The translations under genes were made by a program, and so were the position numbers. Below are positions 5,239 through 43,295 of a stretch of 64,000 nt of DNA, one piece after another. The stretch is from Enterobacteria phage GiZh, in the sequence record NC_054903.1. One strand, given 5' to 3'. Position 1 is the first letter of the stretch, and each line of letters opens with the position of its first letter. Below the pieces are notes generated by a model, which saw only the letters and a program-made list of their open reading frames with translations, searched no databases and was not told where the DNA came from.

Positions 5239-5280
5239 ATATACCCCTTTAGTTAGATAAACCTATTTATAACTTTTGCA

Positions 5281-5862
5281 CTAACCGAGCTTTTTAGTTA
5301 ATTCATTCCAATGTTTTCTGCACAAAGAAACATAAATTTCATCACCAATACAGATTTGATTACCTTCTTTAACTGGTGTTCCATCTTCCATTAATCGAGC
5401 TGTCATAATCGCTTTTTTGCCGCAATGACAAACTGCCTTTAGTTCAATAAGTTTATCTGCAATCGCTAAAAGTTCTTTAGAACCTTCAAACAATTTTCCA
5501 GCGAAATCAGTCCTTAATCCATAAGCCATAACAGGAACATTATATGTATCAACAATTCGGCTCAATTGATGCACCTGTTCAGTTTTTAAAAACTGAGCTT
5601 CATCTACAAATACGCAATGAATATCTTTTTGTGCTTCAGCCCATTTATAGAACTCGAAAATATCCATATCATCTGTAATAATATTCGCTTCCTGTTTAAT
5701 TCCAATGCGAGAAACAACTTCACAGACAGAATCGCGAGTATCAATAGCAGGCTTAAGAACTAATACACTCATTCCACGTTCTTTATAATTATGTGCAGCA
5801 GTCAAAAGAGAAGCAGATTTTCCAGCATTCATTGCTGCATAAGTAAAAATTAAACTCGCCAT
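5281..5862 (-). CDS. tk: thymidine kinase
   Basis: 193 aa; P-loop AAMNAGKSASLL; length and sequence consistent with T4 Tk. Confidence 0.9.
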   Translation of the reverse strand: MASLIFTYAAMNAGKSASLLTAAHNYKERGMSVLVLKPAIDTRDSVCEVVSRIGIKQEANIITDDMDIFEFYKWAEAQKDIHCVFVDEAQFLKTEQVHQLSRIVDTYNVPVMAYGLRTDFAGKLFEGSKELLAIADKLIELKAVCHCGKKAIMTARLMEDGTPVKEGNQICIGDEIYVSLCRKHWNELTKKLG

Positions 5863-5871
5863 ATCACCTTC

Positions 5872-6057
5872 TTAAAGCGTATTCACATAAGCTATTAATT
5901 CATTTTCTTTCTTATCAAACCGATCAGCAAATTCTTCCTGCTGTTCTGGAGATAGCGGGCCGTATTCATCATAAAAGGTGTTTGCTTCTATATGCTCATC
6001 TAGAAGTTCATGGATAAGCTCAAACAATTTATCTTTTTGTTCTTTGCTTAGACTCAC
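5872..6057 (-). CDS. small acidic hypothetical protein
   Basis: 61 aa ORF directly upstream of tk. Confidence 0.45.
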   Translation of the reverse strand: MSLSKEQKDKLFELIHELLDEHIEANTFYDEYGPLSPEQQEEFADRFDKKENELIAYVNTL

Positions 6058-9078: not shown

Positions 9079-9256
9079 CTAAACGAATAGGTTCATGAAT
9101 GCCATATCCTTGAACAGAAATTTCTGTCGTAGGATAAATTCCATCAATATCACCCATATTCCAGGCTTCATTAAATTGCTGTTCGCCTGAATTACTAAAC
9201 CACTCGGCGAAAGCATTTAGCACATCTTTAGAACCTTCAATAATTATCTTTGCCAT
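9035..9256 (-). CDS. hypothetical protein
   Basis: 73 aa ORF in track. Confidence 0.45.
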   Translation of the reverse strand: MAKIIIEGSKDVLNAFAEWFSNSGEQQFNEAWNMGDIDGIYPTTEISVQGYGIHEPIRLVEYDLCTGEEVKYD

Positions 9257-9618
9257 TACAAACTCTCGGTGAAGGTACGAGCGATAACGTCGCGCTGCTG
9301 TTCCGGAGTCAGAGAATTAAAGCGAACTGCATAACCTGATACACGGATGGTCAGCTGCGGATATTTTTCCGGATGCTTAACTGCATCTTCCAGAGTTTCA
9401 CGACGCAGAACGTTAACGTTCAGGTGTTGACCACCTTCAATTTTAACTGTAGGCTGTGGTTCAATTTCAATTTCACGGGCATGCAAACCGTAGAAAATTT
9501 CTGGGTCTACAAAAGAGTCCTCTTTAAAGGTTTTAGAGACAATAATTCGTGCTTGAATACCATCTTCAAAATAAATAGTACCTTTATGTGTGCCTTCAAG
9601 AATTTGATATGCTTTCAT
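9256..9618 (-). CDS. autonomous glycyl-radical cofactor (GrcA/YfiD-like)
   Basis: 120 aa; C-terminal [31 protein letters not shown] is the glycyl-radical signature. Confidence 0.8.
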
Positions 9619-9624
9619 ATAACC

Positions 9625-10005
9625 TCAATTAGAAAATAAATTTATCCAAGATTGTTCTTTAATTAAAAATGGCTCAGAATCATATGCCATTAAACTTTGG
9701 GTAATTAGTCCTTTAAAAGGCCCATCAATAAATTCCATGGTAAAATATGGAATTTTATTCATTAATCTTGCATTAGGAGCAGTGCACAAAACTCTGCATC
9801 CTTTGAATACGCCTTTTTGTAATTTGTATTGCTTGGGATAAAATTCGCTTAAAATGTTATTATTTGCCAAAATTTCAAAATGATTTACCAATTTATTTTT
9901 AATAGTTTTTGGCGAAAAATAGAGATATTCGAAAAGCTGTGTGTCTGTCATCATTGCATTCCGATTACGAAAAACTGTGGACGAGTAATACCACCAATGC
10001 AACAT
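9625..10005 (-). CDS. hypothetical protein
   Basis: 126 aa ORF in track. Confidence 0.45.
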   Translation of the reverse strand: MLHWWYYSSTVFRNRNAMMTDTQLFEYLYFSPKTIKNKLVNHFEILANNNILSEFYPKQYKLQKGVFKGCRVLCTAPNARLMNKIPYFTMEFIDGPFKGLITQSLMAYDSEPFLIKEQSWINLFSN

Positions 10006-10490
10006 TTACTATTACAGCAGTAGTGTACAGTGTCAATATGGACGCTATAAATCTTATCCATATCAGGAGATTTGACAGGCTCATCAATTATATACAAAAT
10101 TCGCGAAAGCGATAAACCTCTGAACTTGCTTCCTTTATTACCGATAAAACTACGGACAGAATCGGTAAATAAACGGAATCGAATATCATCGCTAGAATAA
10201 CGAGAAAATTCTTTTTTAATGTGGCCTGCAGAAATTTTAGCGTAAGCTGAAGTATTAGAAAGAACAATAACTGTTCCACCATCATACAGCCAATTAGCGG
10301 CAAAGTTAGTTACTGCAGTTGATTTACCGGATTGACGTCCACCATCTATACGAAGTGTGCAGTACTGTTTAAGTAATTCTTCAAATGGTGGGATATAATC
10401 GTTTTTACAAATTTCTTCTACTCTAGCATCAGAATGGTGTGTAAAAGCATTCATCAGGGATAGATAAGGACCAGTTAAAAATGTTCTCAT
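9951..10490 (-). CDS. P-loop ATPase (start placed at MRTFLTGPYL)
   Basis: Walker A GGRQSGKST and Walker B-like LYIIDEP; GAGAG upstream of ATG at 10490. Confidence 0.5.
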   Translation of the reverse strand: MRTFLTGPYLSLMNAFTHHSDARVEEICKNDYIPPFEELLKQYCTLRIDGGRQSGKSTAVTNFAANWLYDGGTVIVLSNTSAYAKISAGHIKKEFSRYSSDDIRFRLFTDSVRSFIGNKGSKFRGLSLSRILYIIDEPVKSPDMDKIYSVHIDTVHYCCNSKCCIGGITRPQFFVIGMQ

Positions 10491-10631
10491 TTTATTCTCT
10501 CTAAATTTGGGCCATTCCGTGGCGCATGAATTGTCCATTTCTGTATTTACCCATTACCGCACTCAGGCTCGACCTTATCACAGGTTGGCGGGAATCCCTC
10601 ACAGAATCATGAGGTCCAGCTTGTTCCCATA

Positions 10632-11105
10632 TTATTTGAACGATTTAACGTACTGAATAGAACCTTTACTATTCACAAAGGCAATTTTACCATTTTTATT
10701 ATACATGGTAGCAGTACGTTGATAACCATAAGTTTGTTTACCAGATTGATAACCAACTAATGCGAAATTATCTTCGCCCATTTTATTCTGTTTAGCGCGA
10801 ATGCGTTCATGACCATGTGCCATAAGAACCTTAGCATCACCAGTTGCAATGGATCGACGAGTTTTTTCATCTTCAACTGTATTAACAAAGTCGTCAAATG
10901 AATCAAATTTAGCATGAGATTTATTATACAATTTTCCATCTACTGCATAATTATATCCCTGTACATCCATCTCAACTTCTGTACCATCATCCAATACAGC
11001 AGTGATTTTTTGACCTTTTTTAAATTTCAAAAGATCAGTAAAAGATTCAGCAATAATTTGAGAATTAATAGCTGCTTCAGTGATAAATTCTTGATATGTT
11101 TTCAT
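10632..11105 (-). CDS. internal-protein-like (capsid-targeting leader)
   Basis: 157 aa; N-terminus MKTYQEFITE then AAIN resembles the T4 IP leader with a gp21-type cleavage site. Confidence 0.7.
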   Translation of the reverse strand: MKTYQEFITEAAINSQIIAESFTDLLKFKKGQKITAVLDDGTEVEMDVQGYNYAVDGKLYNKSHAKFDSFDDFVNTVEDEKTRRSIATGDAKVLMAHGHERIRAKQNKMGEDNFALVGYQSGKQTYGYQRTATMYNKNGKIAFVNSKGSIQYVKSFK

Positions 11106-11114
11106 ATGTTTCCT

Positions 11115-11531
11115 TTAAATGTAAATATTTTTACCGTAATACTTATACCAATGTGGTTTCATTAAAATTTTTTCATCAAGTCGTTGTTGACTCAATTTAA
11201 TAGCTGATTTGCATGGATTATAATCATTTTTCCATTCTACTGGAATATCGCTGATGTCAGGAACTTCAGTATCTTTTATACTGAACCCGCGTTTTAAGCA
11301 TTCCGTTATAATGTCTAATTGACTCTTTCGCAAAAATTCTAACTTATCGTAAAAGAACGTAACATGACCAGAACCTAAAATAAACTCGGAAGATATTTTA
11401 AAATCTTTAACGCGCTTACCGTTTGCCACATGCTTACGAACTATACCAAAAACACGCGGCAATTCACGGTATTCTGCGATTAAATGTTGATCAGCAAGTT
11501 CAGATACTAAAGTCAAATTAATACGAGTCAT
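11115..11531 (-). CDS. denV: endonuclease V (pyrimidine-dimer DNA glycosylase)
   Basis: 138 aa; [17 protein letters not shown]...[10 protein letters not shown] close to T4 DenV. Confidence 0.9.
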
Positions 11532-11590: not shown

Positions 11591-12121
<531 letters not shown>

Positions 12122-16830: not shown

Positions 16831-16906
16831 TGGTCGAGGCAGTAGGGATCGAACCTACGACCTAGGACTTAGAAGGTCCTTGCTCTTCCTTCTGAGCTAT
16901 GCCTCG
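16831..16906 (-). tRNA. tRNA-Arg (anticodon UCU)
   Basis: Hand-folded cloverleaf: acceptor CGAGGCA/TGCCTCG, loop CTTCTAA, T-arm GTAGGTTCGATCCCTAC, encoded CCA. Confidence 0.75.
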
Positions 16907-16910
16907 GATT

Positions 16911-16985
16911 TGGCGGACGTGATAGGATTCGAACCTATAACCAATCGCTTAACAGGCGATCGCTCTGCCATTGAGCTACACATCC
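16911..16985 (-). tRNA. tRNA-Asn (anticodon GUU)
   Basis: Acceptor GGATGTG/CACGTCC (one G-U), anticodon loop CTGTTAA, T-loop TTCGAAT, CCA. Confidence 0.7.
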
Positions 16986-16989
16986 AAAT

Positions 16990-17076
16990 TGGTGGGGAGT
17001 GATGGAGTCGAACCACCCGAGTCGCAATGACAATGGATTTACAGTCCACACCGCTACCTCTACGGGATAACTCCCC
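16990..17076 (-). tRNA. tRNA-Tyr (anticodon GUA), long variable arm
   Basis: Acceptor GGGGAGT/ACTCCCC, anticodon loop CTGTAAA, 87 nt, CCA. Confidence 0.7.
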
Positions 17077-17088
17077 TAATTCATAATT

Positions 17089-17163
17089 TGGTGGCCCTGG
17101 GTGGAATTGAACCACCATCTGGCGATTATGAGTCGCTTGCTTGAACCTTCCAGCTACAGGGCC
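17089..17163 (-). tRNA. tRNA with CAU anticodon (Ile2-like)
   Basis: Acceptor GGCCCTG/CAGGGCC; anticodon arm GCGACTCATAATCGC resembles tRNA-Ile(LAU); CCA. Confidence 0.7.
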
Positions 17164-17164
17164 T

Positions 17165-17240
17165 TGGTGCTGATTGACGGAATCGAACCGCCGACCTTCT
17201 CATTACAAGTGAGTTGCTCTACCTACTGAGCTAAATCAGC
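17165..17240 (-). tRNA. tRNA-Thr (anticodon UGU)
   Basis: Acceptor GCTGATT/AATCAGC, anticodon loop CTTGTAA, T-loop TTCGATT, CCA. Confidence 0.75.
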
Positions 17241-17245
17241 AAAAC

Positions 17246-17335
17246 TGGCGGAGGCGATAGGATTTGAACCTATGAGTCGCCGGAGCGACTGCCGGTTTTC
17301 AAGACCGGTGCATTAAACCACTCTGCCACGCCTCC
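17246..17335 (-). tRNA. tRNA-Ser (anticodon UGA), long variable arm
   Basis: Acceptor GGAGGCG/CGCCTCC, anticodon stem-loop CCGGT-CTTGAAA-ACCGG, 90 nt, CCA. Confidence 0.75.
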
Positions 17336-17337
17336 AG

Positions 17338-17411
17338 TCTCCATACAAGGATTTGAACCTTGGACCTCCTGATCCCAAATCAGGCGCTCTACCAAACTGA
17401 GCTACACGGAG
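17338..17411 (-). tRNA. tRNA-Pro (anticodon UGG)
   Basis: Anticodon stem-loop CCTGA-TTTGGGA-TCAGG, T-arm CAAGGTTCAAATCCTTG; CCA not encoded. Confidence 0.7.
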
Positions 17412-17421
17412 TAAATTAAAT

Positions 17422-17495
<74 letters not shown>

Positions 17496-17500
17496 AAATT

Positions 17501-17587
17501 TGGTGCGAGAAGTGGGACTCGAACCCACAAGGAAATCATTCCGCAGCATTTTAAGTGCTGTACCTTTACCAATTTGACCATTCTCGC
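17501..17587 (-). tRNA. tRNA-Leu (anticodon UAA), long variable arm
   Basis: Acceptor GCGAGAA/TTCTCGC, anticodon stem-loop CAGCA-CTTAAAA-TGCTG, 87 nt, CCA. Confidence 0.75.
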
Positions 17588-17588
17588 G

Positions 17589-17661
17589 CTGGGAATAAAG
17601 GACTCGAACCTTTGCATCCTGGAATCAAAATCCAGTGCCTTACCAACTTGGCTAATTCCCA
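17589..17661 (-). tRNA. tRNA-Gln (anticodon UUG)
   Basis: Acceptor TGGGAAT/ATTCCCA, anticodon stem-loop CTGGA-TTTTGAT-TCCAG; 1 nt from tRNA-Leu. Confidence 0.7.

Positions 17662-40154: not shown

Positions 40155-43295
<3,141 letters not shown>

Follow-up and report, generated by a model that had tools for sequence, protein, structure and literature searches.

What kind of protein is encoded by the small open reading frame (ORF) at positions 9951..10490 of the 64,000-nucleotide stretch of Enterobacteria phage GiZh DNA analysed here (NC_054903.1; the whole stretch is called the window below), and what might it do for the phage? An earlier note, made from the sequence alone, had singled it out as a compact P-loop ATPase of about 180 residues, upstream of the vs-region genes, with the strings GGRQSGKST, LYIIDEP and HYCCNSKCC. 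All three strings are present, in an ORF that lies on the minus strand (left unstated in the note) and comprises 540 nt, with 179 codons followed by a TGA stop. By sequence comparison, the ORF is the orthologue of T4 gene vs.8, hence not upstream of the vs genes but itself the first of the vs.8-to-vs.3 block, and its product, itself no terminase, is paralogous to the ATPase core of gp17, the T4-type large terminase. The explanation that we consider best, and reasonably probable, is that of a mini terminase-core ATPase with an accessory role linked to the surveillance of terminase-like folds.

The ORF is confirmed by comparison as real and no chance ORF, because tblastn matches its product in 1008 phage records (with at least 80% of the length covered in 1006) and because PHROG 1488 is matched at E 7.7e-79, spanning residues 19-195 of a 195-residue form of the ORF. 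Comparison with T4 vs.8 had been proposed in the earlier note; in tblastn the product is 95-99% identical to its counterparts in T4-type phages, among them RB14 and T4, with 97% for the RB14 copy, annotated as vs.8, and ~95% over the 179-residue core for T4 vs.8 (NP_049732; PHROG 1488). That note would, in its own view, have been contradicted by strong similarity to a T4 protein already characterised and of known role; the match found is to a named T4 protein, but one that lacks an established role, as the note had supposed of the ORF, and PMC13601566 leaves that role open.

The likely true form is the 179-residue protein that starts at ATG 10490 (MRTFLT). A longer ORF of 195 residues starts at ATG 10538, and the T4 reference annotation of vs.8 has 219 residues (5254-5913 in our T4 comparison sequence, L002). 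We rejected both forms, since an 8-nt indel between T4 and the window puts the T4 extension out of frame here, running into a stop, and since an N-terminus of the form M-[KR]-x-(F)-L-T is common to 36/36 family members. Public assemblies also call the 195-residue gene (family P0001, 1051 member sequences), with an N-terminal extension that is not conserved. A weak Shine-Dalgarno-like sequence, AGAGAG, precedes ATG 10490 (positions 10495-10500) and recurs in relatives.

The earlier note could assign no family from the sequence; profile comparison does assign one, that of the T4-type terminase ATPase. We aligned 36 diverse vs.8 homologues, the set behind all conservation counts given here, and, for the gp17 ATPase, the window's own gp17 (41460..43292, which carries the Pfam domains Terminase_6N and Terminase_6C) with 19 homologues (20 sequences in all). 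In hhalign the two alignments matched over 122 columns at a probability of 96.6% and E 6.4e-10, with vs.8 residues 32-153 paired with gp17 residues 142-272. GRQSGKS pairs with SRQLGKT (161-167), F-R-G with the invariant V-R-G (R245-G246) and IIDE with YIDE (D255-E256), and common to vs.8 and the large terminase subunit (TerL) are thus a terminase-type P-loop, [GS]RQxGK[ST], an R-G ahead of Walker B, and the Asp-Glu of Walker B itself. PHROG 2 (TerL) is matched at E 4e-6, and in a profile search of PDB sequences T4 gp17 chains rank 2nd to 4th (E ~0.02); Pfam Terminase_6N (PF03237) scores 15.1 bits (E 0.019) and stays below its gathering threshold of 22. Residue Y32 pairs with the adenine-binding Y142 of gp17 and is kept in 12/36 homologues. 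We call vs.8 no terminase because it ends at residue 179, without the terminase N-terminal region, subdomain II and the RNase-H-like nuclease domain (Terminase_6C). Walker A and B are conserved across the family. The description of a compact, RecA-like P-loop ATPase, of the additional-strand catalytic glutamate (ASCE) class, holds good. The gene and its motifs are as follows.

9951..10490, minus strand: vs.8 coding sequence, a stand-alone terminase-type ATPase core as judged from the ORF, orthology, PHROG 1488, AlphaFold2 and hhalign

10317..10343, minus strand: Walker A/P-loop GGRQSGKST, residues 50-58, terminase-type with Arg-Gln in the loop; aligns to gp17 SRQLGKT 161-167

10116..10124, minus strand: F-R-G motif, residues 123-125, candidate trans-acting arginine finger; aligns to gp17 R245-G246

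10077..10097, minus strand: Walker B LYIIDEP, residues 132-138, with the catalytic Glu after the Asp; aligns to gp17 IYIDE, D255-E256

9999..10025, minus strand: Cys cluster HYCCNSKCC, residues 156-164, a lineage-specific loop missing in most homologues and of low predicted confidence

9954..9962, minus strand: C-terminal G-M-Q, residues 177-179, conserved, at the tip of the last beta-strand in the model, after strand 172-176

The catalytic residues of vs.8 are retained in about 90% of the 36 homologues. In the P-loop, G55 is invariant (36/36), and R52, K56 and Q53 are found in 35, 34 and 33 sequences, respectively; R113 is kept in 34/36. The position of D136 holds Asp in 29 and Glu in 5 homologues, and that of E137 Glu in 32 and Asp in 2. 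R124, kept in 32/36, with G125 kept in 33/36, aligns with gp17 R245 and may act as an arginine finger. This candidate role is suggested by its distance from the catalytic Glu, ~12 residues, which is like that between R139, an arginine finger acting in trans, and E150 in P74-26 TerL. Near the C-terminus G177 is kept in 33/36 and Q179 in 31/36 homologues. The hhalign match ends at residue 153, before any equivalent of the terminase C-motif (gp17 T285-T287), and the G-M-Q end may correspond to that motif or to a sensor position, a guess from the topology of the model that falls outside the alignment. The Cys cluster noted earlier is indeed there (residues 156-164), but it is a lineage-specific feature and not one of the family: C158/C159 occur in 10-12/36 homologues and C163/C164 in at most 5/36. 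Poorly conserved and in a disordered loop, it was rejected as a family-defining metal site, and a Pfam 'Conotoxin' match (E 0.003) was set aside as an artefact of Cys composition.

Structure prediction, the other check that the earlier note had named, yielded an AlphaFold2 model built on 36 sequences, with a predicted local distance difference test score (pLDDT) of 85 and a predicted template modelling score (pTM) of 0.84; it replaced a 12-sequence prediction (pLDDT 58) that was too poor for use. The model consists of a five-stranded alpha/beta domain and a long N-terminal helix, and the sole segment with pLDDT <50 is residues 161-167, in the region of the Cys cluster. Foldseek against BFVD returned many uncharacterised P-loop proteins of 145-175 residues in T4-like and jumbo phages, which suggests that, at the level of predicted folds, stand-alone mini-ATPases form a broader class among large phages. 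These vs.8-like folds come from T4-like phages of Proteus, Vibrio and Aeromonas and from the jumbo phages phiRSL1, 201phi2-1, EL, Phabio and CBB.

By sequence, the family is small. An exhaustive HMMER profile search of 1.84 billion proteins gave 41 representative clusters at E <= 1e-3, whose full-length members have ~165-185 residues; shorter members look like fragments. Three distant members could be located, all in T4-like contexts: two in a block running from nudE/e/denV to regB/vs (L037, L038) and one beside topoisomerase and rII genes. Among the contexts checked, the family was thus found here in T4-like phages only.

Published data bear directly on the role of the gene. According to PMC13601566 (Nat Commun, August 2026), vs.8 emerged when T4 proteins were screened with AlphaFold 3 against the immune sensor EcAvs2; T4 vs.8 is described there as a terminase-like ATPase that is toxic on co-expression with EcAvs2, AlphaFold 3 puts it in the terminase pocket of EcAvs2 with a bridging ATP, and such proteins are said to be possible anti-defence factors that Avs2 came to recognise. 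The window protein is ~95% identical to this T4 form reported as toxic. In the same block, vs.3 is the anti-Thoeris sponge TadIV-1, and a plasmid with the genes from vs.8 through vs.3 was successfully cloned and kept in E. coli (PMC13243611). The terminase-like nature of vs.8 was therefore already known, stated independently and published in 2026 (PMC13601566). To that account our analysis adds the likely start codon, the conservation of the catalytic and candidate arginine-finger residues, the inconstancy of both the Cys cluster and the neighbouring vs.7, and database labels that are apparently wrong.

In the explanation that we favour, vs.8 is a version of the nucleotide-binding core (subdomain I) of the T4-type gp17 ATPase, standing alone as a 179-residue protein that would bind and hydrolyse ATP. 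It would probably be oligomeric, with R124 completing the active site of the neighbouring subunit as in terminases, and alone would be unable to package or cut DNA. The terminase is a late gene in T4; vs.8, by contrast, lies in the early-transcribed tk-vs-denV region of T4-type genomes, and its product would be an accessory, infection-early ATPase whose biology is tied to the surveillance of terminase-like ATPases by the host. We prefer an active and probably oligomeric ATPase to a passive mimic because the catalytic Glu and the candidate arginine finger are conserved, and an accessory role is proposed because vs.8 has no nucleic-acid-handling domain, occurs in T4-like phages only among the contexts checked, and sits among small early genes, proven anti-defence genes included. 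That it is more specifically a counter-defence factor that some Avs2 proteins learned to recognise is speculative, and we regard it as possible but somewhat doubtful.

A number of results weigh against this explanation. In Foldseek against the PDB, the best match of the model was a helicase (E 1.6e-3, TMq 0.45), and terminases came 11th and lower among weak, unspecific ASCE matches, which comprised RecA domains of superfamily 1 and 2 (SF1/SF2) helicases (DSH9, UvsW), RecD, P74-26 TerL (4ZNI/7KS4) and phi29 gp16 (5HD9). So weak a structure search cannot tie vs.8 to TerL in particular; that tie therefore depends on the comparison of profiles and on the details of the motifs. Pairwise BLAST of vs.8 with gp17 gave no significant match (E 0.29), the one-pass exhaustive HMMER search of the 1.84 billion proteins returned no terminase, and vs.8 has not kept the Gln by which gp17 binds adenine (Q143), its I33 lying in a variable column; phmmer of vs.8 against the PDB was uninformative. 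As to the role, vs.8 activates EcAvs2, the reverse of the effect expected from a simple inhibitor, and impairment of type IV Thoeris by the vs.8-vs.3 fragment is reported for vs.3 only (PMC13243611). Finally, the ATPase activity, oligomerisation and early expression of vs.8 are predictions.

We rank the accessory, surveillance-linked ATPase above an accessory of DNA/RNA metabolism or packaging, followed by a pure decoy, a kinase and a RegB-like RNase. The first of these rivals, which we consider unlikely, makes vs.8 a nucleic-acid-dependent motor or regulator that, for example, tunes packaging with gp17, gp16 or the portal, or serves as a minimal helicase-like or loader ATPase, its recognition by Avs2 being a side effect of the terminase fold. 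As in a true enzyme, conservation extends to the catalytic Glu, the P-loop Arg and the candidate Arg finger; the model finds its best fold matches in the PDB among packaging ATPases, RecD and the RecA domains of SF1/SF2 helicases; similar small P-loop proteins are spread over many large phages in BFVD, and one distant homologue adjoins topoisomerase and rII genes. However, vs.8 is a single RecA-like domain with no recognisable DNA-binding, lever or nuclease module, its gene sits among small accessory genes, and it is not present in most tailed phages but here in T4-like ones only, and so is no core part of replication or packaging. Less probable still is a catalytically irrelevant structural decoy of the terminase ATPase that need only bind ATP and occupy terminase sensors, Avs1-3 or Upx for example, early in infection. 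Proven anti-defence genes in the same block, a protein cut down to about the minimal ATP-binding core, and the AlphaFold 3 placement in the terminase pocket of EcAvs2 with bridging ATP (PMC13601566) would fit, but a catalytic Glu and a candidate Arg finger, needless in a decoy, are nonetheless kept in ~90% of homologues, and toxicity on co-expression with EcAvs2, as described in that paper, amounts to activation and not blocking.

The AAA-like ATPase or kinase suggested by the earlier note found little support, and both were rejected on sub-threshold matches. For AAA+ proteins these were AAA_14 (17.2 bits vs 27) and AAA_30 (14.1 vs 27) in Pfam, and no helical lid of the AAA+ type was seen in the vs.8 model. 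A small P-loop kinase for nucleosides, nucleotides or polynucleotides would be of typical size, and uridine-cytidine kinase profiles do match weakly, but at a non-significant E 0.27-0.45; moreover, the catalytic Glu after Walker B and the TerL profile match place vs.8 in the ASCE class, not the kinase-GTPase class, and the model has no visible lid or substrate-binding domain, so that we judge a kinase very improbable. We give almost no credence to a RegB-like endoribonuclease, the label ('endoribonuclease' or 'Endoribonuclease RegB T4-bacteriophage encoded') carried by vs.8 and vs.7 homologues in teqhad, slur phages, mogra, PYPS2T and other records: vs.8 matches neither Pfam REGB_T4 (PF10715) nor any RNase family at E <= 1, and the true regB lies ~1.5 kb downstream in the same block. 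The labelling extends to L001 3127-3992, and vs.7 does not match the RegB profile either; the label appears, from this pattern in the records, to have spread by copying. Some GenBank records name vs.8 'large terminase subunit', and this name, the endoribonuclease label and the 219-residue T4 entry all appear to be wrong. NCBIfam gave no match to vs.8, and a defence-system ATPase was rejected, as PADLOC matches were not significant (PtuA, E 0.0034, 14.5 bits). The observation of the earlier note is confirmed and its interpretation partly supported.

The genome context agrees with the assignment to vs.8. Megablast of window positions 9500..11200 matched 809 phage records, Escherichia phage teqhad (Tequatrovirus) at 97.6% identity, and by this comparison the window is a Tequatrovirus genome. 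A T4-type phage is also indicated because of its minus-strand neighbours e, denV, an Ip4-like gene, vs.6 and the tRNA cluster.

11591..12085, minus strand: neighbour gene, lysozyme e

11115..11531, minus strand: neighbour gene, denV

10632..11105, minus strand: neighbour gene, Ip4-like internal head protein (DUF7412)

9625..9954, minus strand: vs.7, 108-109 residues, from sequence and annotations (PHROG 2049, no assigned function)

9256..9618, minus strand: neighbour gene, GrcA-like glycyl-radical protein vs.6

16831..17661, minus strand: neighbouring tRNA cluster

The order e, denV, internal head protein gene, vs.8, vs.7, vs.6 is kept, with vs.8 as the first gene of the vs.8-to-vs.3 block, as at the T4 reference locus, and its position matches the T4-like block, in which e, denV and internal-protein genes lie on one side and vs.7-vs.3 and regB on the other. 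The start codon of vs.7 overlaps the vs.8 stop (ATGATGA). An obligate partnership of the two, which this overlap might suggest, was rejected: in Gelderlandvirus and another distant T4-like contig a vs.5-like gene stands in place of vs.7.

Gene order differs from T4 in that an Ip4-like gene lies between denV and vs.8 here (window 10632-11531 vs L002 5940-7416), and e adjoins denV in the window, without ipII or ipIII between them. The end of this variable segment coincides exactly with the start of the conserved vs.8 leader. Some close relatives match window positions 9500-11200 in two pieces that span ~2030 bp, compared with 1701 bp, which implies an extra insert of ~330 bp, where one more hypothetical gene is annotated. 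The tRNA genes of the window (minus strand, 16831-17661) number ten (Arg, Asn, Tyr, Met, Thr, Ser, Pro, Gly, Leu, Gln), a set different from the eight of T4, among which segB is inserted (L041); their spacing is too tight for a segB insert.

The leader of vs.8 raises a question of its own. This segment is ~95% identical to T4 despite the different upstream gene, and in it we find a candidate structured RNA with the following parts.

10491..10631, minus strand: leader between the Ip4-like gene and vs.8, G+C-rich, 141 nt; ~95% identical to T4, with matches in 930 phage records

10546..10592, minus strand: RNA core AACCUGUGAUAAGGUCGAGCCUGAGUGCGGUAAUG (10552-10586) with a 3-bp closing stem (10587-10589/10549-10551) and a 4-bp hairpin inside, from a covariance model

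10590..10628, minus strand: 5' stem-loop with outer stem GGGAA/UUCCC around hairpin CCUCAU/GUGAGG, from compensatory changes read by eye

10511..10523, minus strand: 3' hairpin GCCA-CGGAA-UGGC, upstream of the vs.8 ribosome-binding region, conserved in T4-like phages

The 35-nt core has the consensus AACCUGURAUAAGGUCGAGCCNRAGNGCGGUAAUG and ~90% identity across unrelated phage groups, which beyond T4-like phages include Vequintavirus (rV5-like), Phapecoctavirus, the N4-like Klebsiella phages Pylas and KpCHEMY26, and ~46-kb contigs (with copies in L003, L006, L007, L012, L020, L039, L040 and others). Our covariance model (R1) hits the window once, at 10546..10592 (65.7 bits, E 1.6e-17), and finds one copy per genome, also ahead of a vs.8 homologue of 29% identity (L038). 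The 3-bp closing stem covaries (CG/UA/GC, CG/GC, AU/GU/UA/GC) and the inner hairpin has one pair with a compensatory change. In the covariation test, run on 20 and on 35 distinct sequences, 0/500 shuffles reached the observed score, and in slid controls the score fell to a quarter or less; the structure tested had been derived by eye from some of the same sequences, and its helices are short. For the outer stem, compensatory variants read by eye are GGGAG/CUCCC (L018), GGGG/CCCC (rV5-like, L003) and CCAGA/UCUGG (L004). The 3' hairpin, in which the first loop base varies and no covariation was seen, is weakly supported, and in a single-sequence fold the stability of the leader is not unusual (z-score 0.35).

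On this evidence the leader RNA is probably a genuine structured RNA family absent from Rfam. A known RNA was rejected, there being no Rfam match. So were a small ORF, since in L018 the single frame that runs open through the core is interrupted, and a kinship with T4 rnaC or rnaD, to which the leader bears no similarity. A bacterial element was rejected as well: 185,579 species genomes gave chance matches only, and E. coli genomes searched with a related copy gave none. No description of the RNA turned up in the searchable literature; it may be among the anonymous motifs of PMC10690425.

How the RNA relates to vs.8 is less clear-cut. It always precedes vs.8 in the T4-like phages sampled; a vs.8-like ORF lies within ~200 nt downstream of 28 of the 55 copies collected, each of these in a T4-like phage, and the other 27 have no such ORF behind them. 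Outside T4-like phages the core is usually in or beside a same-strand tRNA gene array, and there (rV5-like, Phapecoctavirus, N4-like, ~46-kb) it would be a free-standing small RNA. The copy in L012 (rV5-like) is preceded by a sigma-70-like promoter (TTGACA-17-TATACT), and that in L020 (a 5.7-kb contig) is followed by a likely intrinsic terminator. If functionally tied to vs.8, the RNA would control vs.8 expression or work with the vs.8 protein, a tie that we think improbable. We would likewise put little weight on the vs.8 locus being a two-part module of a structured RNA (~10511-10628, minus strand) and a terminase-like ATPase.

Several further features of the RNA were noted. The 219-residue annotation of T4 vs.8 covers it as if it were coding. 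In N4-like phages, Phapecoctavirus and ~46-kb contigs (L006, L007, L010, L013, L014, L017, L039) the core tops a long closing helix, whose boxes lie ~60 nt either side of it (5' GTGCTCTTWYCGTTGTG..., 3' ...CACAACA..GGTAAGAGCAYT), recur between other units of the tRNA array and may be processing stems. Klebsiella phage vB_Kpl_K65_evo6 (L034) has two copies of the core, at 117-163 and 639-685; one is between two internal virion protein genes, overlapped by an opposite-strand annotated 'hypothetical protein', and in the copy ahead of vs.8 the closing stem is broken and core bases are altered. In this window the core hairpin has the loop triplet GUG, where most copies have GUA. The invariant CCUGU of this hairpin seems to resemble the U33-G34-U35 of GUN anticodon loops, and AGCC...GCGGUAAU, beside the closing stem, may bear a likeness to the 16S rRNA 530 loop (GCCAGCAGCCGCGGUAAUAC).

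The terminase is the main protein by which the bacterial Avs1-3 and Upx sensors detect tailed phages, and an early-made, probably active mini terminase ATPase would bear on the co-evolution of phage and sensor, be it as trigger, decoy or counter-defence enzyme. vs.8 is at the same time one of many small early T4 genes without an assigned function. Of the two, the upstream RNA is the less expected item; confirmation would make it a new family of phage RNAs, distributed over at least five phage lineages.

Among known systems, the closest to the window protein is T4 vs.8, which likewise heads a vs.8-to-vs.3 block behind the same conserved leader, and differs in its 219-residue annotation and in having denV upstream, in place of the Ip4-like gene of this phage. 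With subdomain I of the gp17 ATPase, vs.8 shares the order of helices and strands, the P-loop Arg-Gln, the R-G and a Walker B of the form hhhhDE, but it spans ~30% of the gp17 length and lies in an early-transcribed region, gp17 being late. With P74-26 TerL, phi29 gp16 and helicase domain 1 it has the general ASCE P-loop fold in common; the matches to P74-26 TerL, phi29 gp16 and RecD/DSH9/UvsW fall at E 1.6e-3 to 5e-2 and TMq 0.44-0.47, and do not separate terminases from helicases. The packaging RNA of phi29 and its ATPase offer a loose analogy for the leader RNA and vs.8. Nearest in their reported behaviour are Ksap1 and Ksap2, described in PMC13601566 as small, lineage-restricted phage proteins with a terminase-ATPase-like sheet that, like vs.8, activate Avs2 on co-expression; vs.8 is credited there with sequence homology and Walker motifs.

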